A DNA stretch of 63,841 nucleotides, filler included, from Caldilineae bacterium (GTDB taxonomy: Bacteria; Chloroflexota; Anaerolineae; DTLA01): the NCBI GenBank assembly GCA_037446815.1. It is 4 parts of 4 records of this genome, joined end to end, with 100 filler letters (N's around TTAATTAATTAA, not from the genome) between each part and the next. Parts side by side here need not be neighbours in the genome. Positions count along the whole stretch, not along the records: positions 1 to 17,515 come from JBBIHX010000052.1; 3 more parts are not named here. The stretch is one strand, 5' to 3'. The notes under the pieces are model-generated. The model did no database searches and was not told the DNA's origin. It was given only the letters and a program-made list of their open reading frames with translations. Positions 1 to 17,515 of this stretch are shown in pieces. Position numbers and translations under genes: made by a program. The number at the start of each line of letters is the position of its first letter. Position 1 is the first letter of the stretch.

Positions 1-103
1 GGCGTCGCACGTTTCCCGTTCGCGTGGATTCGCGTTATTGGCGGTTGCACTCCTCCGAAGTTGCTTCGTATCGTTTTGGAACCGTGTCGGCGGACAGCGA
101 AAA

Positions 104-132
104 TTGACAAACGCGCCGCTTCGGTGTAAAGT
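104..132 (+). promoter_or_regulatory. sigma70-type promoter for the argG leader
   Basis: TTGACA (104-109), 17-bp spacer, TAAAGT (127-132). Confidence 0.75.
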
Positions 133-161
133 TCTGGGCGAATCCCAAAGGATTGGGTGAG

Positions 162-236
162 ATGATCTTCGGCTCTGATTGCGTAACCTGCATCCGACGA
201 CGAACGGACGAGAGGTCAGACCCCGCGTCTGGATAG
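162..236 (+). CDS. putative 24-aa Arg-sensing leader peptide MIFGSDCVTCIRRRTDERSDPASG
   Basis: ATG 162 after AAAGGA/GGGTGA; CGA-CGA-CGA at 195-203 and AGG at 213-215; TAG 234-236; lies between promoter and terminator upstream of argG; not in the supplied ORF track. Confidence 0.7.
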   Translation: MIFGSDCVTCIRRRTDERSDPASG

Positions 237-260
237 TTCCGTTCGGCTTGCGATAGGTGC

Positions 261-298
261 AAGGCCAGCCTCCAGATCGGGGGCTGGCCTTTCTATTT
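261..298 (+). terminator. attenuator terminator upstream of argG
   Basis: AAGGCCAGCCTCC-agatc-GGGGGCTGGCCTT followed by TCTATTT. Confidence 0.8.
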
Positions 299-374
299 GG
301 CGCGATGGGTGTTCCCGTCGCGCTTTTGCGTACCCGGAGGCCGTCCGCAAGAAACCATAACAGGAGGGGTAGAG

Positions 375-1640
375 ATGAAGAAAGGTGAAGTCAAGAAGGT
401 TGTGCTGGCGTATTCGGGAGGGCTGGACACGTCGTGCATCGTGCCCTGGCTCAAGGAGAACTACGGCTGCGAGGTGATTACGTTCACCGCGGACCTGGGG
501 CAGGGCGCCGACGAACTGGCCGGGTTGGAGCGAAAGGCGTTGGCCAGCGGCGCGAAGAAGGCGTACATCGTGGACCTGCGCGAGGAGTTTCTCATGGAGT
601 ACGCCTTCCGGACCATGCGCGCCGGCGCCATTTACGAGCGGCTGTACCTGCTGGGGACATCCTTCGCGCGACCCGTTACCGCCAAGCACCTGGTGAAGGT
701 GGCGGAGCAGGAAGGGGCCGATGCCGTCGCTCACGGGTGCACGGGCAAGGGCAACGACCAGGTGCGGTTTGAATTGTCGGTCAAGGCGCTGAACCCGCAC
801 CTGAGGGTCATCGCGCCGTGGCGCGAGTGGGAGATACGCTCGCGCGAGGACGCGCTGGCCTACGCCCGGGCCCACAACGTGCCGGTGGCGGTTACCGAGA
901 AGTCCATCTACAGCCGCGACCGCAACCTGTGGCACATTAGCCACGAGGGCGGCGTGCTGGAGGATCCGTGGGCCGAACCGGAAGAGGCCATGTTCATGCT
1001 GACCGTCGCGCCCGAAGCCGCGCCCGACACGCCCCAGTATGTAACCCTCAAATTTGAGAAGGGCTATCCCGTGGCGCTGGACGGCGAGGCGATGGGGCCG
1101 GTGCAGATTCTGGAGCGGCTGAACGACATCGGCGGCGCGCACGGCGTGGGGCGCGTGGATTTGGTGGAGAACCGCCTGGTTGGGATGAAATCGCGCGGCG
1201 TGTACGAGACGCCGGGCGGCACGATCCTGTACACGGCCCATCAGGGGCTGGAGCAAATCTGCCTGGACCGCGAGACGCTGCACTACAAAGAACTGGTGGC
1301 GCACCGGTACGCCGAACTGGTGTATTACGGCCAGTGGTTCACGCCGTTGCGCGAGGCGCTGGATGCCTTCGTGGACAAGACCCAGGAGCGGGTTACGGGC
1401 AGCGTGCGCGTGAAACTGTACAAAGGCTCGTGCACGGTGGTGGGCCGCAAGTCGCCCTTCAGCCTGTACCGCGAGGATTTCGCTACCTTCGGCAAGGACG
1501 ACGTGTATGACCAGAGCGACGCCCAAGGGTTCATCAACCTGTTCGGCCTGCCGATGAAGGTGAAGGCGCTGCTGGATATGGAGAACGGCTGGGCGACGGG
1601 TTTGGAGCGCCCCGACTATAGCCGGTTCAAGCGGGATTAG
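375..1640 (+). CDS. argG: argininosuccinate synthase
   Basis: [44 protein letters not shown] motifs; start moved to ATG 375 after AGGAGG. Confidence 0.97.
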
Positions 1641-1646
1641 GCCGGA

Positions 1647-1675
1647 GCAGGGGCAGGCACGAGGTCTGCCCCTGC
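1647..1675. terminator. REP-like hairpin / bidirectional terminator between convergent genes
   Basis: GCAGGGGCAGGC-acgag-GTCTGCCCCTGC. Confidence 0.6.
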
Positions 1676-1679
1676 GATC

Positions 1680-4514
1680 CTACGCCTCTACGCGCACGGT
1701 GGCAGTCTGCCAGGGGCCGCAGGGGACGCGCACGGTGCGCCCGTCCACGACGGCCACGGGTTCAATCGGCTGCTCGGCGAGGTTCACCCGCTCGGCGCGG
1801 CGGATGGGCCAGGCGAATTCCATCTCGGCGTCCACGGCATGGGCCGCGTAGTTGCACACGCGCACGATGAGGCCATCGCCGTCCTCGGGGGTCTTCACCG
1901 CCGTTACCACCAGCGACTCCGGCCGCACCGACAGCAGCGACATTCGCGGAGGCAGAGGCCCTTGCAACGCCACCTGCACCGCGCGCATGGGCGTCTCAAA
2001 GGCGTGGGCGTGGCGGAAGGCTTGCTCCCAACCGCCCGCGTGGGGGATGATGGCGTAGTGGAATGTGTGCTCGCCCAGTTCCTGCGCTTCGGGCGTGGGA
2101 CGGCCCGGGCCCGCGCCCCACTTGCGCGTGGACAGGTCGTCGCGCGAGAGCCAACCCACGCACCGCAGGAGGGTAATGGCGATGGTCGCGCCCTCGTCGC
2201 CGGGGATGACCTCGCCTTCGGGCAGGCCGCGCACGGCCACCATGACGCCCTTCGCGCCGTCGTTCACGTCGCAGAAGGCCCGCTGCGGGAACGTGGGCTG
2301 GGGCTGCTCCACCCAGTCGGCAGTGTCGGCGGGCAGGGCCAAAGGGCGTCGCACCACGTCGTAATGCCCCTCGGCAAACGAGTGGTCGGCGCGAATCGGC
2401 GTCGGCACGAGGACGCGCAGGCGGTGGTCGCGGGCGGTGTTGACGATGGTCGTCTGGATGTCGCAGCGGGGGACACCTGCCGCAAGGGAGATGCGCGTGG
2501 TGATGGGAATGACCGCGTGGTGTGGCGAGCGCGACGCGCGGTCTGGGGCGAGCGACTCGGGCACGCGGTACAGCAGGTCTATCTCCAGCGTGGCGCGCGC
2601 GGGGCCGGCCTCCACGAGGCGGATGACCGGCTTCTCGCACGGGGCGTCCACGAGCGTATCGCGCTCCGGCGGGCAGTAGTTGTACTCGTCGCCGCGGTCG
2701 CCGCCGTCCACGAAACGGTTGACGCCCGAAAGGCGCATGCCTGTGGGCTTGTGCAGGATGGATAGCGTCCCGTCGCGGGGTTCCACCCGCACGCTGATAA
2801 ACTCATTTTCCACATGCAGCGCCGAAGCGGTTACGGCGGTCTGGGCGTGGGCGGTTGTGGCCTTCTGCACCGCAAAGGTGCGATAGCCGAACGATGGCAC
2901 GTCGGCGGCGAGGGCAATGCGGCAGCGCAGGGGGCTTCGCACCCGCACCTGCACTTCGCGGATGGACTCGTCGCCCAGCAGCGTCTGCGACAGGGCGGCC
3001 CAATCGCGCAGGGCTAAGGGGTCGGGCGCGCCGCTTTCGCCCAGCGTAATGTCCAGCCGTGCGCGCTCGCCCTCCGTGCGGAGGCACACCTCGCGGAGGG
3101 GCTTGTCCTGCACTTTGCCGTCCTGCGCGACGCCTGCCAGCAAGAGCAACTCCTCGCGGGCAAAGACGCCGGCAAAGTACTCCTGCTGTTCGCGCTCCAG
3201 AATCTGGTAGGGGATTGGGTCGCCTGCCTCATCGGCTATGGCGAATTGCTCCAGGCTCTGGGGCAATTCCAGCGTGGCTTCCAGCACGTCGGTGCGGGGG
3301 CCGGCCAGCGGGTTGAACACGACGAGCGCGGGCGTTTGGCCCGGAGTTGCCACGGCGTGGGCGATGGCCTCCAGGCTTTGCCGCAGGACGGTCTCGCCGA
3401 TTTGCTCGGCCCAGTCGTAGCGGGTGCGCATTTCGCGGTGGACCTGATCCACGCTGCACCCGCAGATGGAGTCGTGCGGCTGATTCTCCAGCAGATAGCG
3501 CCAGGCGCGCCGCACGATGTCGCGCGTGGGGGCGAGAGGCATCGGGGGCACGCCCGCATGCGCGGCCAGTTGTTCGGCGAAGGCCGCCCAGGGCTCCGCC
3601 CAACGCTCCAGCAGCGTCTGGAGGGCGGCGTTGCGCTGCTTGATCCACATACGGGCCGAAAGGACGCCTGGGAGCAGGTGCTGGGTCTTGCACGAGCGGA
3701 GTTCGCCCTGCACGACGGGCAGCGCATCCACGCCATCGGGGCCGAGGGCGTCGCGCACCGCCTGGATGTAGGCCGGCAGGGTGCTGTGGCGGATGTCCAG
3801 GGCAGGCAGTCGCGCGGACGTGTGGCGGATGGCGGCGGGCAGGGCTGCGTCCGGCTCCATGTGGTCGGTGCCATTCATCAGGGGTAGGCAACCGGAGCGG
3901 GAATGAGCGGCCATGTCCGCGATGAGGGCCTCCACGGCGGCGGCGAACGCCTCGGGGTCGCCAACGGGCAGGTGGGCTGCGTTGCCATATCCGCCGCGCA
4001 GGTAGATGAGCAGCACCTCGTCGCCTCCCGCGCCGCGCCACCGCAATTCAAACGGGTGGTCATCCAACCCGCGCCACAGGACGGCCTCGTTCATCCCGAA
4101 CCCGCGCAGGATATGCGGCAGTTGGGAGATGTGGCCGAACTGGTCGGGCGCGTAGCCCACGGTCATCTTCGCGCCGAACCTCTGGGCGATGCGGTGGCCG
4201 AGGAGCAGGTTGCGCACGATGGCCTCGGGGCTGACGAGGAACTCGTCGGGCAGGATGAACCAGGGGCCGATGAGGAGCCGGCCCGATTGCACCAGGGCGC
4301 GGATTTCGGCCTCGCGTTCGGGCCGCACCTCCAGGTAGTCTTCCAGGACGACGGTCTGGCCGTCCAGCATGAAGAAGCGATAATCGGGATCCGACGCCAT
4401 GATGTCCAGGAGTTTGTCCACCAGTTTGACGAGGCGCAGGCGGAACTCCTGGAACGGCTGATACCACTCTCTATCCCAATGGGTGTGCGGAATGATGAAC
4501 GCCTGCTGTGTCAT
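1680..4514 (-). CDS. GH38 alpha-mannosidase family (mannosylglycerate hydrolase-like)
   Basis: PHTHWDREWY, LDGQ, IGPWFILPDEFLVS, PDQFGH, NQPHDSICGCSVD; start MTQQAF at 4514 after GGGAGGA. Confidence 0.9.
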   Translation of the reverse strand: MTQQAFIIPHTHWDREWYQPFQEFRLRLVKLVDKLLDIMASDPDYRFFMLDGQTVVLEDYLEVRPEREAEIRALVQSGRLLIGPWFILPDEFLVSPEAIVRNLLLGHRIAQRFGAKMTVGYAPDQFGHISQLPHILRGFGMNEAVLWRGLDDHPFELRWRGAGGDEVLLIYLRGGYGNAAHLPVGDPEAFAAAVEALIADMAAHSRSGCLPLMNGTDHMEPDAALPAAIRHTSARLPALDIRHSTLPAYIQAVRDALGPDGVDALPVVQGELRSCKTQHLLPGVLSARMWIKQRNAALQTLLERWAEPWAAFAEQLAAHAGVPPMPLAPTRDIVRRAWRYLLENQPHDSICGCSVDQVHREMRTRYDWAEQIGETVLRQSLEAIAHAVATPGQTPALVVFNPLAGPRTDVLEATLELPQSLEQFAIADEAGDPIPYQILEREQQEYFAGVFAREELLLLAGVAQDGKVQDKPLREVCLRTEGERARLDITLGESGAPDPLALRDWAALSQTLLGDESIREVQVRVRSPLRCRIALAADVPSFGYRTFAVQKATTAHAQTAVTASALHVENEFISVRVEPRDGTLSILHKPTGMRLSGVNRFVDGGDRGDEYNYCPPERDTLVDAPCEKPVIRLVEAGPARATLEIDLLYRVPESLAPDRASRSPHHAVIPITTRISLAAGVPRCDIQTTIVNTARDHRLRVLVPTPIRADHSFAEGHYDVVRRPLALPADTADWVEQPQPTFPQRAFCDVNDGAKGVMVAVRGLPEGEVIPGDEGATIAITLLRCVGWLSRDDLSTRKWGAGPGRPTPEAQELGEHTFHYAIIPHAGGWEQAFRHAHAFETPMRAVQVALQGPLPPRMSLLSVRPESLVVTAVKTPEDGDGLIVRVCNYAAHAVDAEMEFAWPIRRAERVNLAEQPIEPVAVVDGRTVRVPCGPWQTATVRVEA

Positions 4515-4539
4515 CGCATTGTCCTCCCGTGATGAACGT

Positions 4540-5409
4540 TTAGGTTTGCCGTTTCGGCTCCTGGACGAGCACCAGGGCGATGCCGAGCAGGGTGATTGCC
4601 GCGCCCAGTGCCGCGTTCCAGGTCGGCGCTTCGCCCAGGAACAGCCAGCCCAGCAGGATGCCGCCGGTAACCTCCTGCGTGGCGACAAGGTTTACATAGG
4701 TCGCATGGGTCTTGCGCAGGGCGGCGTTGTACAAGGTGTGGCCCAGCCCCAGCGGGAACACGCCCAGCGCCAGCACCGACAGCGCCTGGCGCGTTCCCCA
4801 TCCCGCGCCTGCCAGCGGGGCCGCTACCGGCGTGAGCCAGAGGGCCGCCGCGCCATAGGTGGCGAGCGCGTAGGTGAAGAGCGGATACCGGTCGCGCTGG
4901 GAGCGGCCCGCCACGGAGTAGAACCCGAACGCAATCGCCGAGCCGAGCGCCAACGCGTCGCCGATGAGCATGTCGCGGGTGAGGTGCGGTTCAAATCCGG
5001 CCAGGATGGCGACGCCCGCCACGGCGACCGCGACGCCGACATACTTCCAGCGGGCGATGGACTCGCGCAGAAACAGCGCCGAGAACAGGGTTACGAAGAT
5101 GGGCGCGGTGTAGGTGAGGGTCAGGGAGTGGGCGATGGTCGTGTAACTCAGCGACGCGATGTAGCAGAAGAAGTGCGCGGCGGTAATCCCGCCGAACAGC
5201 AGGAAGCGCGGGATGTCGCCGCGGCCCAGGCGCACGCGCTGGCGGGATGCAAGCGCCAGGACGGCGACGGTGGCGGTGGCGATGGCAAGCCGCGCCCAGG
5301 TGATGACGTAGGGCGAGAGGGGCGCGGCCCATCGGATGAAGACGGGCGACGTGGAGAACATCAGCGTGCCAAGCGCCACGTACAGGAGTCCTTTGCGGCG
5401 TTCGGACAT
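4540..5409 (-). CDS. EamA/DMT family transporter
   Basis: about 10 hydrophobic segments in two EamA-like halves (YTAPIFVTLFSALFLRE; GWLFLGE). Confidence 0.88.
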   Translation of the reverse strand: MSERRKGLLYVALGTLMFSTSPVFIRWAAPLSPYVITWARLAIATATVAVLALASRQRVRLGRGDIPRFLLFGGITAAHFFCYIASLSYTTIAHSLTLTYTAPIFVTLFSALFLRESIARWKYVGVAVAVAGVAILAGFEPHLTRDMLIGDALALGSAIAFGFYSVAGRSQRDRYPLFTYALATYGAAALWLTPVAAPLAGAGWGTRQALSVLALGVFPLGLGHTLYNAALRKTHATYVNLVATQEVTGGILLGWLFLGEAPTWNAALGAAITLLGIALVLVQEPKRQT

Positions 5410-5412
5410 ACG

Positions 5413-6663
5413 CTACTCTCCTCCCAGGTGCGACGCCCGCGGCGGGATGACCTTGCGCAGATAGGTTACCGGCGTCGGCTGCCCGTTCAGCGGGACGGTT
5501 GCCTCGCGGTGGGGCACAAACCCCAGGCGCTCGTACAGGGCGCGCACCCGCACGGCGTCGCTGCGCACGCCGATTTCCAGCACGGGGATGTCGCGCGCCG
5601 AAGCCTCGTCGGTGAGCGCCTGGATGAGCGCCGTGCCCAACCCGCGCCCCTGAAGCGAAGGCTCCACCACCAGGTTGGCAATCTCCGCAACCTCGCCCAT
5701 GATGCTCAACTCGCCGTTGGCCACGGCTTCGCCCAGTTCCACCACCAGGTGTACCCTGCGGCCCCTCGCGGCCTCGGCCAGGCTCCACGCCAGATGGCGC
5801 GCGGTGTCGTCGGGAGCCGAGCCGGAAAAGCAGTTCCGCGCCAGGGCGTCGGCGTCGTCGGGCGCGGCGCGGCGGATGCGCCAGGCAGGCCCGGGGTTCA
5901 GGTGGAACGCCAGGTGATACTCCAGTTGCCCGGCCACGAAGGCCACATCGTGCCCGCCTGGGCGCTGTCGGTATGCGGCCAGGATGCCCTGAGCGCGGCA
6001 GGCGTCCACGAATCGCCGCCCCAGGGGGCGATCCCACGCATCGTCGCCCGTGGTTACCAGCAGGCGCATCTCTCCCAGCGCGGCGACGTGCGCCGCGGGG
6101 TTGTGGGCGCGCCACACGGCCGGGTCATCCCCCAGGAGTGCGCGCAGGCCCGCGTAATCGGGGCACAGCGGCTCAATGTCCAGCGGCCCAAGGATGGACG
6201 AGGCGCTGGCGAACAGGTCGGGGTGGCGCGCGGCCAGGTACATGGCGCCGAACCCGCCCATGCTGAAGCCGCAGATGGCTCGGTTTTCCCGTCTGCCGCC
6301 GACCCCGTGCCGCGACTCCACGGCGCTCATGACGGCGAGGAAGGCGCGCTCGCCCTGGCTTCGCCGATTCGCCGGGCTGTCCAGATACCACCCCTTGCCC
6401 CCGTTCACGAAGGCCAAGCACACGCGCGCGGCCATTGGCAGCAGGCGAGCCATGGGCAGGTCCGTGAAGAACGAGGCCGGCGAGTGGCCCGCGCCGTGGA
6501 GGAAGTAGATGACCGGCCGCGGCGTGCTGTCCTGCGCGTTCTGGGGCGGGCAGACGAGGACCGGCTCGCGGCGCGTGGGCGCGACCCGAACCCACTCCCA
6601 GCGGCAGCGCGGCGGGAGTGCTACCTGGGGCGCGGGATTTCTTCGCAGTGGGAGACGCAGCAT
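5413..6663 (-). CDS. alpha/beta-hydrolase esterase fused to C-terminal GNAT acetyltransferase
   Basis: YFLHGAG, GFSMGG nucleophile elbow, GGHD; then VEPSLQGRGLGTALI and LYERLGF GNAT motifs; start uncertain (6663 ATG or 6675 GTG); ORF-track extension to 6876 runs into repeats. Confidence 0.75.
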   Translation of the reverse strand: MLRLPLRRNPAPQVALPPRCRWEWVRVAPTRREPVLVCPPQNAQDSTPRPVIYFLHGAGHSPASFFTDLPMARLLPMAARVCLAFVNGGKGWYLDSPANRRSQGERAFLAVMSAVESRHGVGGRRENRAICGFSMGGFGAMYLAARHPDLFASASSILGPLDIEPLCPDYAGLRALLGDDPAVWRAHNPAAHVAALGEMRLLVTTGDDAWDRPLGRRFVDACRAQGILAAYRQRPGGHDVAFVAGQLEYHLAFHLNPGPAWRIRRAAPDDADALARNCFSGSAPDDTARHLAWSLAEAARGRRVHLVVELGEAVANGELSIMGEVAEIANLVVEPSLQGRGLGTALIQALTDEASARDIPVLEIGVRSDAVRVRALYERLGFVPHREATVPLNGQPTPVTYLRKVIPPRASHLGGE

Positions 6664-6724
6664 GTTCGGACTCACCGGTCGGCGTAAGGTGGAGGGAAGT
6701 ATAGCAGGATGGGCGCGGGAGGGC

Positions 6725-7190
6725 AAAGTGGGGCTGAAGCCGCCGCGGTGGAGGTGTGGAGCAAATTGGCAATTTGCTCCACGGGGCAGGTGTGGGCGTG
6801 GCGGCGCGGGGCTGAAGCCGCCGCGGTGAGTGGGTGGGCTTCCCCCTGGCCGCGTGCGAGGGAGCGTGGCCCTCACCCCAGCCCTCTCCCGGTGGGCGAG
6901 GGAGCGTGGCCCTCACCCCAGCCCTCTCCCGGTGGGCGAGGGAGCGGGGCCGCGCGGGGCTGAAGCCGCCGCGCTGAGGGTGGTTGCAGGGCGGGTCCTT
7001 GGGGAAAGGCGGCTCGGTCTTGTCACCCTGAGCATGTAGGGGCGACCGATCGGTCGCCCCTACTACTATCCGCGGATAACGCGGATTGCACGAATAGGGG
7101 TTGCGAGATTCTTCGCGGCTGCGCCGCTCAGAATGATGGGCGGTCGGCGCCCTGGCGGTGGCGGCTACCGGCGGACTTTGAACCGAATCC
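6725..7190. repeat. mosaic cluster of REP-like palindromes
   Basis: 3x GGGCTGAAGCCGCCGCG; 2 tandem CCTCACCCCAGCCCTCTCCCGGTGGGCGAGGGAG; perfect 28-bp palindrome GTAGGGGCGACCGATCGGTCGCCCCTAC (7036-7063); GAGATTCTTCG...CTCAGAATGA unit. Confidence 0.85.
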
Positions 7191-7267
7191 GAGGGCGGGG
7201 CGAGGTTGGTGATTGGCGGCAACCGTGGTATAATAGCCCAAGCCAACTCCCACAGAGAGTCCATACG

Positions 7268-8017
7268 ATGGCAATCGCAGCGGCGCTACTCGGATACTGC
7301 GTCGGCGTGTTCTTGAACCTCTGCGCCGACTTCCTGCCCGCCGAGCCACGGCGGTCTCCGTTCCAGTTTCCCCGATGCGCGGCATGTGGCGCGCCCCGAC
7401 GACCCTTGAGCCTGGCAGGGGTGATTGCGGATTGGGCTGGCTGGAGCCGCTGCCCGCAGTGCGGGGCAGGGCGAGGGCTGCGCGCGCCCGTCGTGGAACT
7501 GGCAACTGCCGCCATCTTCGGGTTCTTGGCTTGGCGCTACGGGTTTGGGGTGCAGTTCGTTTTCCTGGCGCTCTACTTCGCGGTGCTCATCCTGGTTACC
7601 GTTACAGACCTGGAGCATCGCCTCATCCTGGATGTCGTTACCTACCCGGCCATGGCGCTGGCGCTGGTAGGGAGTTTCTTCATGCCCAACATGACGCCGG
7701 CAAAGGCGCTCATCGGCGGCGCCATCGGCTTCGGGCTGTTCTTCGTGCTGGCCGTGATCGCCCGCGGCGGGCTGGGCGGCGGCGACGTTACGCTCATGGG
7801 GTTCGTGGGCCTAGCGACGGGGTTCCCGGTGGTTATCGTGGCAATCCTGGCGGGTATCCTGCTGGGCGGGCTGGGCGCCGGGGCGATGCTGGCGCTCCGT
7901 CGCGTTGGCCGCAAGAGCACCATCGCCTACGGCCCGTATCTGGTGCTGGGGGCTGCGTTCGCGCTTCTGTACGGGCGCGAGTTCATCCTGTGGTATCTAG
8001 CGCCGTATGCGCGCTAG
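7268..8017 (+). CDS. prepilin peptidase (A24 family)
   Basis: two CxxC (CAAC, CPQC), TDLEHRLI and GGGDV aspartate motifs, IAYGPYL; TGGTATAAT extended -10 upstream. Confidence 0.88.
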   Translation: MAIAAALLGYCVGVFLNLCADFLPAEPRRSPFQFPRCAACGAPRRPLSLAGVIADWAGWSRCPQCGAGRGLRAPVVELATAAIFGFLAWRYGFGVQFVFLALYFAVLILVTVTDLEHRLILDVVTYPAMALALVGSFFMPNMTPAKALIGGAIGFGLFFVLAVIARGGLGGGDVTLMGFVGLATGFPVVIVAILAGILLGGLGAGAMLALRRVGRKSTIAYGPYLVLGAAFALLYGREFILWYLAPYAR

Positions 8018-8032
8018 GCGCGAGGGGGAGAC

Positions 8033-10015
8033 ATGTTTGATACACTGTTGGCGACACTGCGCAAGGAGATCTCGGGGGCCGCGGCCAGGAACTACGTGGG
8101 CGAGATCATTCGCTATCACCGCATCCAGGCCAGCCCGGGGTTTCGCGCGGCGGCGGAGTACGTGGCCGAGACGCTCCGCAGCGCGGGGCTAGAGACGCGC
8201 ATCCTGTCGTATCCCGCCGACGGGCAGACGACGTTCTGGTCCATGCGCACGTTCCACGAGTGGGATTGCCAGGCGGCCACGCTGTACCTGCTGGGCGAAG
8301 ACGGCCAGCCGACCGAGAAACTGGCCGACTATCGGGACGAGAAGGTGTCGGTCATCCAGCGCAGCGCGCCGGCGGACGGGGAGTTTGAGGTGGTTGCGCT
8401 GGAAGGCGGCGACGAGCGGGCGGACTACGAGGGGCTAGACCTGGAGGGCAAGGTGGTGCTCACCCAGGCCCCCATTGAGCGCGTCGTGGATTTGGCGATT
8501 CGGGAGCGCGGCGCGGCGGGGGTGCTGTTTGACGGGATGATGAAAGCGCCCCCTGTGCGCGAACGGATAGACCTGCCCGATGCCCGCCAATACACGTCGT
8601 TCTGGTCGCGTGGGGGCGAGCCGCTGACGGCCTTCGGCTTCGTCCTCACGCCGCGCCAGGGCGATGCGTTGCGGGAGCGGTGCAGGAAAGCCCGCGCTGA
8701 GGGCAAGCCCCCCGTGCGCGTGCGCGCAAAGGTGGAGTCGGCTCTGTACGTGGGGCAGATGGAGGTCGTGGAGGCGGTTATCCGCGGCGAAACGGCGGAA
8801 GAGGTCGTCCTGGTTGCCCACCTGTGCCACCCGCAGCCGTCGGCGAACGATAACGCGTCGGGCGCGGGCGCGCTGATGGAAGTGGCGCGGGCCCTGGCCG
8901 CGTGCGTGGCGAGCGGTCGGCTTCCCAAGCCCAGGCGCACGCTGCGATTCCTGTGGGTGCCGGAGATGTCGGGCACGTATGCGTACCTGGCGTCGCGCGA
9001 GCAGGATATTCCCCTCATGATCGCGGGGCTGAACCTGGACATGGTGGGCGAGGATCAGGACAAGTGCGGGAGTTCGCTCCTGGTGGAGTCGCCGCCCGCG
9101 TCCATGAGCAGTTTTGCCCCCGTGCTGGCGCGACACGTGCGCGATCTACTGCTGGGCGGCGCGAAAAGCCACGCGGGACAGGGCGAATTCCCGCTGTATC
9201 GCTACGCCGATACGCCTTTCTCCGGCGGGAGCGATCACTACATCCTGTCCGATCCGACGGTGGGCGTGCCCACGCCGATGATTATCCAGTGGCCCGACCG
9301 CTACTACCATACCAGCGAGGACACCCTGGACAAGGTCAGCCCGCAGATGATGGGGACGGTGGCGGCGCTCGCGGCGACCTATGGGTACTGGGTGGCCAAC
9401 GCCGGGCCGAAGGAGGCCGAATGGCTTGCCCACGAGATGACGGCTCGGTTCAAGGCGGAATTCCTGCGGCGCGCCCAGGCGGCGATGGCAGTAGGGAGCG
9501 GTAAGGGCAGCGCGGCGAAACTGCGGCGGGAAGTGGCATTTGCCACGGCGCGCCAGGCTGAGGCGCTGGCGACGGTGCGACGCCTGGCTGCGATTGACAT
9601 AACCGCATTCCAGGCCGAGTGCGCGGCCTTTGCCGATGGCGAAGTGGCGCGCGCGTTGGCGTTCCTGGGCGAGGAGGCGGGAGAGCTGCCCGCTCCGCCG
9701 TCGGGCGAGTGGGAGGAGAAGGCCGCCCGCATGGTTCCGGTGCGGCGGTTCCGAGGGCCATTGTCCGTCGGCAATCTGCTAACCAAGCCCGCCGACCGAG
9801 AGGCGTTTTACCGATTCCGAAAGGAGCACCCTCAATTCGGGTGGACCACGCCCGATCTGGCGGTGTACTGGGCCGACGGCGAGCGAACCGTGTCCGACAT
9901 CGCCGATTTGTTGGAAGCCGAGACCGGGCAACGACCAACGCAGGCGCTGGTTGAGTACTTTGAACTCCTCGCGCGGGTCGGCGGCGTGGAACTGCACCAG
10001 CGAGGAGCGGCATAG
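8033..10015 (+). CDS. DUF4910-like M28 family metallo-aminopeptidase
   Basis: AHLCHP, ANDNASG, WVPE, NLDMVG, GSDH, YHTSEDT; C-terminal winged-helix-like segment. Confidence 0.8.
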   Translation: MFDTLLATLRKEISGAAARNYVGEIIRYHRIQASPGFRAAAEYVAETLRSAGLETRILSYPADGQTTFWSMRTFHEWDCQAATLYLLGEDGQPTEKLADYRDEKVSVIQRSAPADGEFEVVALEGGDERADYEGLDLEGKVVLTQAPIERVVDLAIRERGAAGVLFDGMMKAPPVRERIDLPDARQYTSFWSRGGEPLTAFGFVLTPRQGDALRERCRKARAEGKPPVRVRAKVESALYVGQMEVVEAVIRGETAEEVVLVAHLCHPQPSANDNASGAGALMEVARALAACVASGRLPKPRRTLRFLWVPEMSGTYAYLASREQDIPLMIAGLNLDMVGEDQDKCGSSLLVESPPASMSSFAPVLARHVRDLLLGGAKSHAGQGEFPLYRYADTPFSGGSDHYILSDPTVGVPTPMIIQWPDRYYHTSEDTLDKVSPQMMGTVAALAATYGYWVANAGPKEAEWLAHEMTARFKAEFLRRAQAAMAVGSGKGSAAKLRREVAFATARQAEALATVRRLAAIDITAFQAECAAFADGEVARALAFLGEEAGELPAPPSGEWEEKAARMVPVRRFRGPLSVGNLLTKPADREAFYRFRKEHPQFGWTTPDLAVYWADGERTVSDIADLLEAETGQRPTQALVEYFELLARVGGVELHQRGAA

Positions 10016-10044
10016 AGGCACCGATTACCACGGGGAGGTGTTGC

Positions 10045-11826
10045 ATGAAGAAACTGTTGTCGGGCAATGAGGCCATCGCGCGCGGCGCGTGGGAGTATGG
10101 GGTGGCGGTGGCATCGGCCTATCCGGGAACGCCGAGCACCGAGATTCTGGAGGAGTTTGCGCGCTACCCCAACGTGTACGCGGAGTGGGCCACCAACGAG
10201 AAGGTGGCGCTGGATGTAGCCATCGGCGCGGCGTATGCGGGGCGGCGGGCCATGTCCACCATGAAGCACGTGGGGCTGAACGTGGCGGCGGATGCCTTTT
10301 TCTACGCATCCATGACGGGCATAGAGGGCGGGCTGGTCATCGTGTCCGCCGACGACCCGGCCATGCACAGTTCGCAGAACGAGCAGGATAACCGCAACTT
10401 CGGGAAGTTCGCCCGCGTGCCGGTGGTGGAGCCGGTGGACAGCCAGGAGGCGAAGGACCTGGTGGGGGCGGCGCTGGACATCAGCGAGCAGTTTGACACG
10501 CCGGTCCTGTTGCGCATTACCACGCGAATCGCCCATTCCAGCACGCCGGTGGAACTGGGCGAGCGCCGGGAAGGGCCACCCCCGCTGCCGACCTACCCGC
10601 GCAAGTTTGAGAAGTACGTCATGCTGCCGGTGAACGCCCGCAAGCGGCATCCCGTCATTGAGGAGCGCATTCGCAAACTCACGGAGTTCGCGGAGACGTT
10701 CCCGTTCAACCGCATTGAGTGGGGCGACCGGGACCTGGGCATCGTTACGTGCGGCGTGGCGTACCAGTACGCCAAGGAAATCTTCCCAACGGCGTCGGTG
10801 CTCAAGTTGGGGATGACCTATCCGATTCCGCCCAGGATGGTCCGGGAGTTCGTGGGAGGCGTGAAGCGGGCCATCGTGCTGGAGGAACTGGACCCGTTCG
10901 TGGAGAACGAGATCAAGTTGCTGGGCCTGTGGGTGGAAGGTAAGTCCATCTTCTCCGGCATCGGCGAAATGGATCCGCGCCTCGTGCGCGAGCAGGCCAT
11001 CGCTGCGGGCCTTCTGCCCGAGTCGGCGCGCAAGACCTACGTCGTGCCGGACGTGGGGAGCCTGCCCGGCCGGCCGCCGGTGCTGTGCCCGGGGTGCCCG
11101 CACCGCGGATTCTACGTCATCACGCGCAAACTGAAACTGCCCATCAACGGCGACATCGGCTGCTACACGCTGGGCGCGCTGCCCCCGCTGAACTCCACCG
11201 ACACGTGCGGGTGCATGGGAGCGAGCATCGGCGTGGCGCACGGGGCGGATAAGGCCGGCTCGCCGGAGCGCAACATCGCCGTGCTGGGCGATTCCACGTT
11301 CTTCCACACGGGCATGCCGGCGCTGCTGAACGTCGCCTACAACAAGGGCAAGACGATTACCGTGGTGCTGGACAACCGGGTAACAGCCATGACGGGCCAT
11401 CAGGACAACCCAGGCACGGGCCGCACGCTGCAGGGCCAGGAGACGAAGGAGATTGAGTTTGAGCCGCTGCTGCGGGCGCTGGGGATGGATCACGTGCATA
11501 CGGTGAACGCCTTCGACCTGCGCGAGGTGGAGCGGGCGCTGCGGGAGGCGGTGAAGCGAGACGAGGCGTCGGCGCTGGTGGTTCGGGGCGAGTGTGCGCT
11601 GCTGCCCGAGGCGCGCAAGAAGTACGTGCCGCTCCGTGTGGACGAGGAGCGGTGCAACGGATGCGGGCTGTGCTTCCGGGTCGGGTGCCCCGCCATCGTC
11701 AAGCGGCCGGACGGAAAGGCGTCCATTGACCCGCTGCTGTGCACGGGGTGCGAGGTGTGCGCCCAGGTGTGCGGACGAAAGGCGATTCTGTTCCGGGCGC
11801 AGGTTCTGGAGCAGTCGGAGGGTTGA
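10045..11826 (+). CDS. iorA: indolepyruvate:ferredoxin oxidoreductase alpha subunit
   Basis: GNEAIARGA, YPGTPSTE, LCPGCPHR, GDIGCY, GDSTFFH and two C-terminal 4Fe-4S motifs. Confidence 0.95.
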   Translation: MKKLLSGNEAIARGAWEYGVAVASAYPGTPSTEILEEFARYPNVYAEWATNEKVALDVAIGAAYAGRRAMSTMKHVGLNVAADAFFYASMTGIEGGLVIVSADDPAMHSSQNEQDNRNFGKFARVPVVEPVDSQEAKDLVGAALDISEQFDTPVLLRITTRIAHSSTPVELGERREGPPPLPTYPRKFEKYVMLPVNARKRHPVIEERIRKLTEFAETFPFNRIEWGDRDLGIVTCGVAYQYAKEIFPTASVLKLGMTYPIPPRMVREFVGGVKRAIVLEELDPFVENEIKLLGLWVEGKSIFSGIGEMDPRLVREQAIAAGLLPESARKTYVVPDVGSLPGRPPVLCPGCPHRGFYVITRKLKLPINGDIGCYTLGALPPLNSTDTCGCMGASIGVAHGADKAGSPERNIAVLGDSTFFHTGMPALLNVAYNKGKTITVVLDNRVTAMTGHQDNPGTGRTLQGQETKEIEFEPLLRALGMDHVHTVNAFDLREVERALREAVKRDEASALVVRGECALLPEARKKYVPLRVDEERCNGCGLCFRVGCPAIVKRPDGKASIDPLLCTGCEVCAQVCGRKAILFRAQVLEQSEG

Positions 11827-11989
11827 CCTCACTCTCTGAACCCCAACCTCACCCCCCTCAATCCCCGAAGCCGAGGCCGGGGTGAGGTGCGACGCCAGCG
11901 GAGATGGGGAGGCCGAAGGCGGGGTGTGGCGCGCGCAGGGGCGGGAAATCGCAGACAGTTGCAGGTGATCCGGTCAGGGAGGATGGATT

Positions 11990-12574
11990 ATGAAGAGCAT
12001 GGATTTCATCGTCGTCGGCGTGGGCGGGCAGGGAACGCTGCTCGCCAGCGACGTGATCGCGCAGGTTGGCCTCGGGGCAGGCCTGGAAGCCAAGAAGTCG
12101 GAGGTGCATGGCATGGCCCAGCGCGGCGGCAGCGTCATCAGCCACGTGCGTTGGGGCGAGAAGGTGTATTCTCCCCTCATCGGCAAGGGCGAGGCCGATT
12201 TCCTTCTGGCGTTTGAGAAACTAGAGGCGTTGCGCCACGTGGACTGGCTGAAGCCCGGCGGCGTGGCCCTGGTGAACGACCAGGCCATCCCGCCCGTGGC
12301 GGTGAGTTCGGGCGGGGCCGAGTATCCGTCCGACGAGCGGTTTCTGGCCGCGTTCAGGGCGGTTACGGACAGGCTGTACCTTATCCCCAGCCTTGCGGTC
12401 GCGCAAGAAGTGGGGAGCGCGCGCGTGAACAACGTGGTGATGCTCGGCGCGCTGTCGGCGCTGCTGGACGTGGACGAGGCGGTGTGGCGTGCGGCGATAG
12501 AAGAGCGCGTCCCGCCGAAGTACGTGGAGTTGAACCTGCGCGCGTTTGAGCGGGGGCGCGGGCTGGTGAAATAG
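11990..12574 (+). CDS. iorB: indolepyruvate oxidoreductase beta subunit
   Basis: GVGGQG, SEVHGMAQRGGSV; follows iorA. Confidence 0.95.
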   Translation: MKSMDFIVVGVGGQGTLLASDVIAQVGLGAGLEAKKSEVHGMAQRGGSVISHVRWGEKVYSPLIGKGEADFLLAFEKLEALRHVDWLKPGGVALVNDQAIPPVAVSSGGAEYPSDERFLAAFRAVTDRLYLIPSLAVAQEVGSARVNNVVMLGALSALLDVDEAVWRAAIEERVPPKYVELNLRAFERGRGLVK

Positions 12575-12654
12575 CCCCCTGCGGAGAGGATCGCGCCCGA
12601 AGGACACGCGACGTCCCATGCCGCGATGGGCCTTCGGGCGCTGTGCTTTGCCGT

Positions 12655-13008
12655 TCAGTCCTCGCGGACGGTGTACTCGCCCTCAACAACCTCGCCTTGG
12701 GGGGCGGGGCTTGTGTACTGGCCTCGGATGCGCGCCAGGTGCTCGGCGGCGATATCTCTCGGACACAGGGAGATGAAGGCCTGGATGCCCAGGGCCAGCA
12801 GCGTCAGGTCGTCCACCTGCCCTAGGACGGGTGTCAGGTCGGGCAGGAGATCCAGCGGCACGAAGAGATAGGCGAGCACCGCGGCGGGGATGACGATCTT
12901 GGGCCAGAGGGGTACGCGCGGGTCGCGGAACAGCCGCCACGCCAGCCGAAGCCGATTCCATAGGCTTGCCCAGAAGCCGATGGGATTCTTGGGTGCTTTG
13001 TCGGTCAT
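12655..13008 (-). CDS. YkvA/DUF1232 family membrane protein
   Basis: DPRVPLWPK...YLFVPLDLLPDLTPVLGQVDD; start MTDKAP after GAGGTG. Confidence 0.85.
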   Translation of the reverse strand: MTDKAPKNPIGFWASLWNRLRLAWRLFRDPRVPLWPKIVIPAAVLAYLFVPLDLLPDLTPVLGQVDDLTLLALGIQAFISLCPRDIAAEHLARIRGQYTSPAPQGEVVEGEYTVRED

Positions 13009-13149
13009 AGGGAACACCTCGCTGCGCACAGTATAGCCGCTTTCGGCGCGGGGCGCAATATCGGCGGCGTGGCGGGATGGGGAGAGAGCCTGCCACGCCT
13101 CACGCCGCATGGGCAGCACCATCCTCAGCACAGCGATTGGTCTCGGTGC

Positions 13150-13600
13150 ACGAGATTCTTCGGCGCTTTGCACTTCAGAATGGGCCCCCACGCACTTTGG
13201 CGCCGAATCCCAACGCCCCGCCCTGCAACCCCGCCCTCATCGCGGCGGCTTCAGCCCCGCGCGGCCCCACCCCCAGAACTGTCATTCCCTGAGCGGCGCG
13301 GCCGCGAAGAATCTTGCCCCTCACCCCAGCCCTCTCCCGGCGGGCGAGGGAGCGTGGCCCTCACCCCAGCCCNNNNNNNNNNNNNNNNNNNNNNNNNNNN
13401 NNNNNNNNNNNNNNNNNNNNNNNNNNNNNNNNNNNNNNNNNNNNNNNNNNNNNNNNNNNNNNNNNNNNNNNNGGCGGGCGAGGGCGCGTGGCCCTCACCC
13501 CAGCCCTCTCCCGGCGGGCGAGGGCGCATCGCCTTCGGCTTGGCATGACAGAGCAAGCGGCAGATCACCTGCCGACCAACACAAGTTGGAACCGCGTCCA
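13150..13600. repeat. REP-like mosaic spanning a 100-N gap (13373-13472)
   Basis: same repeat families as 6725-7190; tandem CCTCACCCCAGCCCTCTCCC units on both sides of the gap. Confidence 0.85.
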
Positions 13601-13683
13601 ACCGGCACGTGGCTTGGCCTGGGCGGCAGGGGCGGGTATAATAGGCCTACCCATTACGCCGAGAGGTAGGCGACAGAGCACGG

Positions 13684-15372
13684 ATGCGAAAACTGGCGGA
13701 ATGTTTACTGGACTACTCCGTGGTTCGCTTGCGGGCGCTGGCGGCGGCCCGCGGCATAGACCTGCCCACCAACAACCGCGTGCAGGCAGCCCACTTCCTG
13801 GCCGAACAGATGCTGCGCCCCGAGTCGGTGGCCGAGGCGCTGGAAATCCTTAGCCCGCAGGAGCGCGAGGCGCTGGAGACCGTCCAGGCGGCAGGGGGCA
13901 AGGTGCGCGCCGATCCCTTCATGCGCCGATTCGGCGAGATACGCCTCATGGGCGACGGCAAACTGATGCTGGAACAGCCATGGCTCTCGCCTGCGAGCAT
14001 CACCGAACGCCTGCGGTTCCTGGGGTTCCTGTTCAAGGCGTTCGCCGACTATGCGGATGAGCGGGTGGCGTTCCTGTTCATTCCGACGGACGTGTTGCCG
14101 CTGCTGCCCCCGCCGCGCGCGCAGGCGGGCCTGCCGTTCACGCCGCGCCCGGCGCCCGCCCAAGTCTGGCAGGCGCGGGATACGGCGTCATTGGACTTGT
14201 GCACGTTTCTCGCCTACTTGCAGAACCAGCAGCCGAGGTACGCGCGCGGGCGTGGGGTGTCGCCCCAGGACGAATCGGCGTGGCGGCGGCGCTGGGCGTG
14301 GAAGCCGATGTCGCCCCCGCCGTTCGCGGGGCATGTCTCCTTGCGCTCGCAGTGGCTGCTGCGCGTCGCGGGGCGGCTCAAACTGGTGCGCAAGGTGGGG
14401 GAGCGCGTGAAACCGGCATCGGACGCGGCGCGCGCGTGGCTGAGCGCCCCCACGGCGACGCGGCAGGGCCAGATGTACCGCGCGTGGGTTGGCGACGACG
14501 GCTGGGACGAACTGCGGCGGATTCCCGAAATCCGCTGCGAGGGGAGCGGGTGGAGCCACGATCCCGTGCGCACCCGCCAGCGGCTTCTGGACTTGCTGAA
14601 AGCGTGCGAGGCGGGCGCGTGGTACTCGCTCCCGCAAGTGGCGCGCACCATTCGCGACTACGCGCCCGATTTCCAGCGCACCGGCGGCGACTACGAGACG
14701 TGGTATATCCGCGACGTGAAGACAGGCCAGTATCTCACGGGGTTTGAGCATTGGGATGATGTGGAGGGCCGACTGATTGCGCAGGTTGTGGCGGGGCCGC
14801 TGCACTACCTGGGGGCCGCCGATTTGGGCTGGGATGTGGAGGGCGCCGAGTTGTGCTTTGCCCTGACCGAATGGGGCTGGGCATGGCTGCACGGCAGCGA
14901 GACCGAGCCCAGCGCGACCGGCTCGCCCCTTCGCGTGGGGGATGACGGGCGAGTGCATTGGCCCGCCGACGGCAATCTGCTGCACCGCTTCCAGTTGGAG
15001 CGATTCGCCACGTGGGAGAGTGACAACGGCGGCACGGTCTATCGCATCACGCCCGCGTCGGTGGCGCGCATCCTGAGCCAGGGCGTGGACGCGGAGGCCG
15101 TGGCGCGCTTTCTCTCGCAGGCGAGTGAGGGGCAGGCTCCCGACAGCGTGTTGGCGCGCATTCGCGAGTGGGCGGCCCGCCGCGGACGGGCACGCTTGAC
15201 CCGCGCCGTCCTGCTGGAGGCCGACTCGCCCGAAGTGTTGGCGGCGATTCGCGCCGACGTGGAGATCGGGCCGCTCCTGGGCGAGGCGGTCGGCCCCACA
15301 TGCGTGCGCGTGCCCGAGGCTCACTGGCGACGGGTTGAGGCGCTTCTGCGGGGCAAGGGGTTCATCGCCTAG
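13684..15372 (+). CDS. helicase-associated domain protein (XPB/Ssl2-associated Helicase_C_3-like)
   Basis: C-terminal LERFA...YRITPASVARILSQG...FLSQAS...PDSVLARIREW pattern; no Walker motifs seen. Confidence 0.7.
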   Translation: MRKLAECLLDYSVVRLRALAAARGIDLPTNNRVQAAHFLAEQMLRPESVAEALEILSPQEREALETVQAAGGKVRADPFMRRFGEIRLMGDGKLMLEQPWLSPASITERLRFLGFLFKAFADYADERVAFLFIPTDVLPLLPPPRAQAGLPFTPRPAPAQVWQARDTASLDLCTFLAYLQNQQPRYARGRGVSPQDESAWRRRWAWKPMSPPPFAGHVSLRSQWLLRVAGRLKLVRKVGERVKPASDAARAWLSAPTATRQGQMYRAWVGDDGWDELRRIPEIRCEGSGWSHDPVRTRQRLLDLLKACEAGAWYSLPQVARTIRDYAPDFQRTGGDYETWYIRDVKTGQYLTGFEHWDDVEGRLIAQVVAGPLHYLGAADLGWDVEGAELCFALTEWGWAWLHGSETEPSATGSPLRVGDDGRVHWPADGNLLHRFQLERFATWESDNGGTVYRITPASVARILSQGVDAEAVARFLSQASEGQAPDSVLARIREWAARRGRARLTRAVLLEADSPEVLAAIRADVEIGPLLGEAVGPTCVRVPEAHWRRVEALLRGKGFIA

Positions 15373-15393
15373 CCCTGCCCCGCCCGACGCCTG

Positions 15394-17214: not shown

Positions 17215-17315
17215 GTCTTACCTCTGAACAGAATGACGGCGTCCCACACGATGGCGGGCGCACGCGAGAATATACCACCGCGGGCGCTGGCAGGCAACTC
17301 GGCGCGTGCCACGAG

Positions 17316-17459
17316 TCGGTTCCAAACTGTGTTGGTGAAACGCAGACACACTCTCCTCGCGTGTCATTGCGAGCGAAGCGAAGCAATCGCACGCCCCGGG
17401 GATTGCTTCGGGCGCTCCGCGCCCTCGCAATGACAGCCACCAACAGACTCTGGAACCGA
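17316..17459. mobile_element. 144-bp MITE-like element, copy 1
   Basis: imperfect ~20-bp TIRs TCGGTTCCAAACTGTGTTGGT / ACCAACAGACTCTGGAACCGA enclosing a GTCATTGCGAG...CTCGCAATGAC hairpin. Confidence 0.7.
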
Positions 17460-17515
17460 ATCCGTGCGACAGGTCGGTCTCGCGTTGGCCCACGCGCTGC
17501 TCATGTGTCGCCGCG

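Follow-up and report, generated by a model that had tools for sequence, protein, structure and literature searches.

The locus considered here raises the question of how argG, the gene for argininosuccinate synthase, is controlled in an Anaerolineae (Chloroflexota) genome; the usual controls of arginine genes are repression by ArgR at ARG boxes and the T-box. The window, that is, the whole stretch of DNA that was analysed, is 63,841 nucleotides (nt) long, filler included, and its positions 1–17,515, which hold argG and its leader, are one contig of a 3.19-Mb assembly that is 93.6% complete (G000, the source genome; L and G numbers denote loci and genomes of the comparison set). Judged from sequence, the leader is very probably an arginine-sensing, ribosome-mediated transcription attenuator of argG that responds to how much charged tRNA-Arg is available. 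The element itself is genuine and conserved, and five of the six defining features of a classical leader-peptide attenuator were found in full or in part, including a promoter-proximal upstream open reading frame (uORF) with a ribosome-binding site, tandem cognate codons, an intrinsic terminator, and a protector helix with its 5′ arm at the regulatory codons. A preliminary description of this DNA had listed a promoter, a uORF with a CGA run and a further AGG, a terminator, and argG, all of which were recovered at coordinates that were exact or off by 1–2 nt. Its proposal of a stalling attenuator of the trp/his type keyed to arginine is supported by comparison, specifically by conserved uORFs with runs of Arg codons, by exchange of these codons for Lys or Pro codons, and by the failure to find ArgR or a T-box.

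DNA upstream of argG was compared in a first set of 30 loci from 40 relatives, 28 with usable upstream sequence, and in a second set of 80 further loci. A short open reading frame (ORF) with an Arg run, followed by a terminator, was present at 12 of the 28 usable loci, ten of which have an obvious scaffold in common with the window, the other two (L025 and L029) being built on a different scaffold. Several families of the class have retained the same unit before argG, comprising the uORF, an Arg run set at a constant spacing from the stop, the protector hairpin, and the terminator; relatives also have TTGACA and a -10-like box at the same place. In four relatives from the same genus, the N-terminal part of the leader peptide is variable and RRR(T/A)DERSDP(A/R)SG is kept, with a compensatory change in the protector, in which CGAACGGA/TCCGTTCG is replaced by CGAGCGGA/TCCGCTCG in L004 and L005. 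The alignment of relatives that had been suggested as a check thus returned both a conserved uORF with its Arg run and compensatory helix changes, and this conservation makes the arrangement more than chance. Among 35 distinct argG-linked leaders of the scaffold, 33 contain at least two consecutive Arg codons, which lie 10 codons from the stop in 23 leaders, 11 in 5, and 7, 9 or 20 in the remaining 5; CGA makes up 72 of the 80 run codons.

A covariance model (R1) was built from an alignment of 23 argG leaders spanning the Arg run to the T tract (A1), and was used to survey a sample of 151 class genomes from 100 genera (E ≤ 1e-3) and a separate phylum-wide sample of 151 genomes. Matches were obtained in 79 of the 151 class genomes and 52 of the 100 genera; in the phylum-wide sample, only two genomes besides the source genome had any. 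On the window leader the model scored 104.8 bits, with ≤27 bits elsewhere in the genome and nothing comparable elsewhere in the window, and no second R1-type leader was found in a search of the whole source genome. The other two matches there, at C175 and C71 (27 and 18 bits), were rejected, one being a simple terminator 3′ of a gene and the other lying in coding sequence.

Outside the alignment set (A1 loci and the duplicates L031–L033 excluded), a strong R1 match was found at only two more of 84 argG loci, so many Anaerolineae argG genes have no R1 leader directly upstream. The two loci on a different scaffold, L025 and L029, carry RRR or RRRR leaders with their own terminators and lack the R1 scaffold, which suggests more than one origin for arginine-codon attenuation at argG. 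The Arg leader and argG are in some genomes separated by another small gene, as in G005, where a HicB-like antitoxin-family ORF occupies positions 762–1040 of L133; at L012, L072, and L139, about 290–370 nt separate the leader from argG.

For R1 matches not linked to argG, the uORF ending at the conserved GTCTGG(A)TAG was read and the first long downstream ORF was named with Pfam; codon counts, those of argG leaders included, refer to the 13 codons preceding the tail that the scaffold encodes. The scaffold is constant, with GCC(A/G)GAC and GTCTGGATAG ∼5 nt apart and, after a linker, a terminator that bears CTCCAGAC at the apex, and the leader codons on this scaffold track the downstream gene: Arg before argG, carA, and genes for ArgC-type dehydrogenases, Lys before genes for homocitrate synthase and LysX-like ATP-grasp proteins, and Pro before the prolyl-tRNA synthetase gene. 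Per 13-codon window, leaders of argG (34) have 3.0 Arg and 0.65 Lys, those of homocitrate synthase (11) 3.7 Lys, those of LysX-like genes (9) 2.9 Lys and 1.2 Arg, and those of prolyl-tRNA synthetase (7) 4.4 Pro; the single carA leader and the five leaders of ArgC-type dehydrogenases are of RR or RRR type. Concordance was assessed on 65 distinct leaders, with classes set by the downstream gene and the cognate residue counted among R, K, and P; leaders linked to a metallophosphoesterase gene, which has no assigned pathway, were left out. The cognate residue was the single commonest of the three in 52 of the 65, with 7 ties. Cognate residues summed to 200, whereas label shuffling that ignored kinship gave 114.5 ± 10.4 (0 of 10,000 shuffles as high). 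Different amino-acid classes also occur side by side in one genome, e.g., G141 and G048. Leader codons that follow the pathway while the RNA stays constant are the signature of ribosome-mediated attenuation and are hard to square with a ligand- or protein-specific RNA.

A rival explanation is a protein- or ligand-dependent attenuator, in which a factor binds the CCAGAC/GTCTGG hairpin or a second hairpin and the uORF is incidental. Such a factor would accommodate the conservation of the scaffold in sequence as well as structure, the weak column-wise covariation of the antiterminator, and the second hairpin that follows the terminator specifically in the Arg class. Yet one scaffold before three pathways would require either a non-specific factor or three that recognise one RNA; codon content follows the pathway, the Arg run stands at a fixed distance to the stop and adjoins the protector arm, and nearly all members retain an open frame with a start codon (65 such leaders were read). 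We consider this explanation quite unlikely.

The second hairpin has a conserved stem (GCGCGATGG/CCATCGCGC), a variable loop, and a short T run after it. It lies directly 3′ of the terminator in 20 of 85 model matches, all with Arg-type leaders (19 before argG and one before a LysX-like gene), specifically in the window and in L002–L006, L048, L049, L051, L053–L055, L057, L058, L121, L126, L127, L131, L132, and L137; among the same 85 matches it was never found behind Lys- or Pro-class leaders, and it does not recur as a repeat throughout the genome. Its role may be that of a second terminator or of an element specific to arginine, and the GCGCGATGG...CCATCGCGC hairpin, being confined to Arg-type leaders, could provide a second, arginine-specific layer of control. 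The ATG inside it was judged to be a by-product of the palindrome, not a conserved second uORF.

A leader attenuator also has to be able to adopt mutually exclusive folds. The whole leader folds more stably than shuffled sequences (z = -2.6; 0 of 200 shuffles as stable), and in its minimum free energy (MFE) fold an outer protector helix (201–208/238–245) encloses an inner hairpin (216–221/227–232), followed by the terminator. The protector had been described as the outer helix only; that helix indeed belongs to the MFE fold, but as one part of a two-part hairpin whose inner part had gone unnamed, and it is the inner part that holds the TCTGG which would afterwards pair with the apex of the terminator. 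For the stretch 216–277, which would be open for pairing while a ribosome stalls at the Arg codons and the 3′ arm of the terminator has yet to be made, the MFE fold (-16.3 kcal/mol) is the antiterminator of the preliminary description. Of the two helices named there, 228–233/271–276 is found in this fold and family-wide; 245–251/259–266 is likewise part of the fold but is specific to the window sequence and is not conserved within the genus (L002–L005). The AGG codon adjoins the inner hairpin and may be relevant to the switch.

Across the family, the RNAalifold consensus of A1 comprises the inner protector hairpin and the terminator, with 17 pairs, nine of which show compensatory change; in the terminator, 8 of 12 consensus pairs have at least one sequence changed on both sides. 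The protector arm just 3′ of the regulatory codons, often including them, pairs with a stretch just after the stop, at -13.0 kcal/mol for matched arms versus -10.0 kcal/mol (standard deviation 3.6) for arms mismatched between different members, and the own partner ranks within the best 10% in 29 of 73 members. Most of 76 distinct members can pair all six nucleotides of the 6-mer at the end of the uORF with the terminator apex; the 6-mer scores 5.55 against its own apex and 5.36 ± 0.04 against permuted apexes (0 of 1,000 permutations as high). In many members this pairing runs across the stop codon, GTCTGGA-UA-GGCU with AGCC-UCCAGAC, an extension that the genus of the window lacks. In the antiterminator register, 84.8% of A1 cells pair column-wise, compared with ≤58.7% when the partner is slid. 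Within the antiterminator, the family-wide part is the pairing between uORF end and terminator apex, a helix that is mostly conserved, not covarying.

The same nucleotides encode a common peptide tail, P-D-x-x-S-G, from CCAGAC...GTCTGGA, in which synonymous positions are fixed (TCT GGA, CCA GAC). Where residues vary the pairing is kept, as in TTTGGG/CCAAA (L053), ATTGGG/CCCAAT (L054), TCCGGT/GCCGGA (L164), and TCGGGA/TTCCGG (L179); the stop lies in another frame after GTCTGG in L165 and L171 (...VW*) and comes earlier in L138 and L162. To judge from these sequences, conservation is at the level of the RNA, not of the peptide. This bears on the possibility of an arrest peptide resembling TnaC, SpeFL, or the fungal arginine attenuator peptide (AAP), in which translation would halt at the stop codon through the joint action of the nascent chain and free arginine in the exit tunnel, and the halted ribosome, not tRNA charging, would set the RNA fold. 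The C-terminal ...P-D-x-x-S-G-stop is widely common to members, and masking of GTCTGGA by a ribosome parked at the stop would promote termination, the direction expected of feedback. The C-terminus is, however, explained by the RNA helices; the variants FG, IG, PG, and SE change the residues and keep the pairing, the frame or place of the stop differs in the four loci just named, and an identical C-terminus on the Arg, Lys, and Pro classes leaves no ligand specificity there, the variable part differing mainly in its cognate codons. An arrest peptide is therefore very unlikely. That the leader is a chance arrangement, in which a meaningless short ORF happens to accompany a common terminator or the end of some upstream transcript, is scarcely credible, even though GC-rich DNA yields many Arg-rich short frames, a genome-wide scan for an RR-uORF plus terminator gave 18 matches including the leader (the 17 others mostly unconvincing), and the window begins 103 nt before the promoter-like site with the upstream gene outside view, given that many genera keep the complete unit before argG, including its promoter, and that the R1 score of the leader stands so far above any other in the genome.

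As a ribosome-mediated attenuator, the leader would operate as follows, where it is the ribosome positions and the response to arginine that we infer. Transcription would start a few bases past the -10 box, and the uORF would be translated behind the moving RNA polymerase. With ample Arg-tRNA, the ribosome would reach the TAG and cover both GTCTGGA and the 3′ arm of the outer protector, so that the terminator 5′ arm would lack a partner, the hairpin 261–291 with its T tract would form, and transcription would stop before argG. In RNA free of ribosomes, the two-part protector would hold GTCTGG and the terminator would also form. With scarce Arg-tRNA, the ribosome would stall at CGA CGA CGA, possibly at AGG, masking the 5′ side of the protector; the freed GTCTGGA would then pair with TCCAGAT at the terminator apex (271–277), assisted in this sequence by the local hairpin 245–251/259–266. 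Since the antiterminator and the local hairpin would precede synthesis of the terminator 3′ arm, transcription would read through into argG.

Several observations weigh against attenuation by a stalled ribosome. The completed terminator is far more stable than the antiterminator (-26.7 versus -14.1 kcal/mol), and the latter is about isoenergetic with the inner protector plus the local hairpin (-14.4 kcal/mol); the switch would therefore have to be kinetic, as in classical attenuators. In this genus the family-wide antiterminator has only 6–7 pairs and the inner helix that would help it is not conserved, and column-wise covariation of the antiterminator on A1 is not significant, with 90 of 500 shuffles reaching the observed 84.8%. 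Two of the 35 argG leaders have only one Arg (KRC and KKRS), 6 of the 65 leaders are discordant with the downstream pathway, and the permutation figures, which ignore kinship among relatives, overstate the support. The near-invariance of CGACGA could come partly from RNA pairing, not codon choice, as these codons are paired in several members. Lastly, ArgJ, an ArgC-type dehydrogenase, and CarA were not found in the source genome with the queries used; the genes may have been missed by the assembly, or argG may serve only a citrulline-to-arginine route.

The features of the leader and gene are collected in Table 1. The promoter-like site is the sole such site in positions 1–2000, where 0.4 would be expected from shuffles, and the GGTGA before the uORF would be complementary to the 3′ tail of 16S rRNA. 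The argG homologue of a relative has Pfam Arginosuc_synth domains; the ORF after argG is on the opposite strand. In the source genome, CGA makes up 10.4% of the Arg codons in long open frames, a crude count that includes some non-coding frames, and the genome encodes tRNA-Arg with the anticodon UCG as well as with ACG. As a rare codon, CGA may sharpen the response; the Escherichia coli leu leader uses the rare codon CUA.

Table 1. Positions of the leader elements and of argG in the window.
Feature	Coordinates	Strand	Basis
Sigma-70-type promoter-like site, TTGACA (104–109), 17-nt spacer, TAAAGT (127–132)	104–132	+	10/12 matches
Shine-Dalgarno-like GGTGA just 5′ of the uORF start	156–160	+	Read from sequence
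Leader-peptide uORF, 24 codons, ATG 162, stop TAG 234–236, peptide MIFGSDCVTCIRRRTDERSDPASG	162–236	+	
Regulatory run CGA CGA CGA (three Arg codons)	195–203	+	
Segment 1a, 5′ arm of outer protector (anti-antiterminator) helix, CGAACGGA, pairs with 238–245	201–208	+	MFE folds
Further Arg codon AGG	213–215	+	
Segment 1b, 5′ strand of inner protector hairpin, TCAGAC, pairs with 227–232	216–221	+	MFE folds and RNAalifold consensus helix (23 leaders)
Segment 2b, GTCTGGA, last two sense codons of the uORF; partner 216–221 (protector) or 271–277 (antiterminator)	227–233	+	
Segment 2a, 3′ arm of outer protector helix, TCCGTTCG	238–245	+	MFE folds
Local hairpin GGCTTGC/GCAAG-g-CC; occupies base of terminator 5′ arm in the antiterminated fold	245–266	+	Part of MFE fold of 216–277
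Intrinsic terminator, 13-pair stem-loop 261–291, TCCAGA (271–276) at apex, T-rich tail TCTATTT	261–298	+	-26.7 kcal/mol
Second hairpin GCGCGATGGG/CCCGTCGCGC, then TTTT	300–327	+	
Shine-Dalgarno AGGAGG of argG	362–367	+	Read from sequence
argG (argininosuccinate synthase), 421 amino acids (aa), ATG 375	375–1640	+	

As the preliminary description had proposed, the source genome was examined for argR: the C-terminal domain of ArgR (Arg_repressor_C) was not found in this 93.6% complete assembly, a search that did not cover the N-terminal domain or ARG boxes. Among the 151 class genomes, the domain was detected in only one, as a partial match inside a 402-aa frame, and a control search detected it in 8 of 14 reference genomes. 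An Rfam scan of window positions 1–1000 (E ≤ 10) returned no T-box or other leader family, only three chance-level matches to unrelated families. The source genome also has argH and four genes of the OTCace_N (carbamoyltransferase) family, and no Arg leader was found upstream of any of these five. Intergenic regions at C100 (before argH) and at C185 and C16 (before two of the OTCace_N genes) contain a ∼70-nt palindromic repeat that starts like CACCGCAGAG, ends like CTCTGCGGTGA, and resembles repetitive extragenic palindromic (REP) elements or miniature inverted-repeat transposable elements (MITEs).

The logic of the leader is that of the classical leader-peptide attenuators (trp, his, leu, thr, pheA, and ilv of Proteobacteria, and some in Actinobacteria and Firmicutes), which share with it a promoter-proximal uORF with tandem cognate codons in or beside the protector 5′ arm, mutually exclusive protector, terminator, and (here putative) antiterminator helices, and placement of the terminator before a gene for the same amino acid. 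It differs from them in amino acid, in phylum, in matching no Rfam leader family, and in that one RNA scaffold is common to Arg, Lys, and Pro leaders; to our knowledge, proteobacterial leaders that serve different amino acids do not resemble one another in sequence, and we know of no cassette common to several amino acids. The lysine (alpha-aminoadipate) cluster of Thermus thermophilus is reportedly subject to leader-peptide attenuation, with a Lys-codon leader and a terminator before homocitrate synthase. That arrangement would be the one seen in the Lys-class members, which may have a precedent in it, and differs from the argG leader in phylum and in responding to lysine, not arginine. Control by ArgR or a T-box would have the same goal of arginine feedback, with the difference that Arg_repressor_C was not found in the source genome and that no T-box was matched. 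In AAP, SpeFL, and TnaC, an upstream ORF likewise governs a gene by way of an amino acid, but these sense free ligand in the exit tunnel via a conserved peptide and act on translation or Rho-dependent termination; here, conservation is at the RNA level, the signal would be codon content, and the terminator is intrinsic.

The literature searched gave no description of a leader-peptide attenuator of arginine biosynthesis, or of attenuators in Anaerolineae or Chloroflexi; most subscription-journal papers lay outside this search, and a prior description is possible. The Salmonella speF leader has an ORF with arginine codons, and mRNA conformations at low and high arginine are reported to control expression through this leader region (PMC6386406); that leader controls a polyamine gene, not arginine biosynthesis, and has a different architecture. 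A term search of one survey returned no "arginine," "argG," or "Chloroflexi" (Naville and Gautheret, 2010; PMC2965389), another, in the text available, mentions Chloroflexi solely as a group whose genomes were too few (Korolev et al., 2016; PMC4833913), and the leaders listed in the accessible part of a Rho review include his, tna, and speFL and none for arginine biosynthesis (PMC12360218). The statement that such an attenuator is not described for argG therefore fits the literature searched, although coverage of this kind is too partial to prove it. What appears to be new is the arginine specificity, the phylum, the modular scaffold with three specificities, and the setting in a class that seems to be without ArgR; the logic itself is classical.

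Taken more broadly, we lean slightly toward the view that the protector, GTCTGG, and a terminator with a CCAGAC apex form a modular cassette that has been copied within genomes and re-aimed by changes in its leader codons, that this cassette is the main amino-acid feedback device of the class in place of ArgR, and that it includes the first arginine- and proline-specific ribosome-mediated attenuators. Arginine biosynthesis is the textbook case of ArgR control, and an attenuator keyed to arginine would fill a gap in the amino acids covered by classical attenuation and bring the mechanism into Chloroflexota, in which gene regulation has hardly been studied. Arg, Lys, and Pro codons swapped on one scaffold amount to a natural experiment on how attenuators diversify, and the stalling model predicts that specificity changes when the codons are swapped. 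R1 also aids annotation: it flags arginine, lysine, and proline genes as regulated across hundreds of uncultured genomes, and it identifies short ORFs that gene callers miss or misname.

Some further arrangements were seen on the same scaffold. Tandem attenuator units stand before one gene at L155 (1655–1776 and 1819–1932), L175 (201–330 and 376–508), L133 (489–600 and 640–760), and L055 (596–718 and 831–938), the gene being homocitrate synthase in two genomes and argG in two. Mixed Lys and Arg leaders (KRS, AKRSK) precede the LysX-like genes of L131, L145, L149, and L156, which, speculatively, would fit a LysW-type pathway serving both lysine and arginine. Pro-rich leaders on the R1 scaffold, with 5.5 Pro per 13-codon window, precede a gene for a ∼215-aa calcineurin-like metallophosphoesterase at four loci (L148, L160, L182, and L183), suggesting a link of this gene to proline metabolism or Pro-tRNA.

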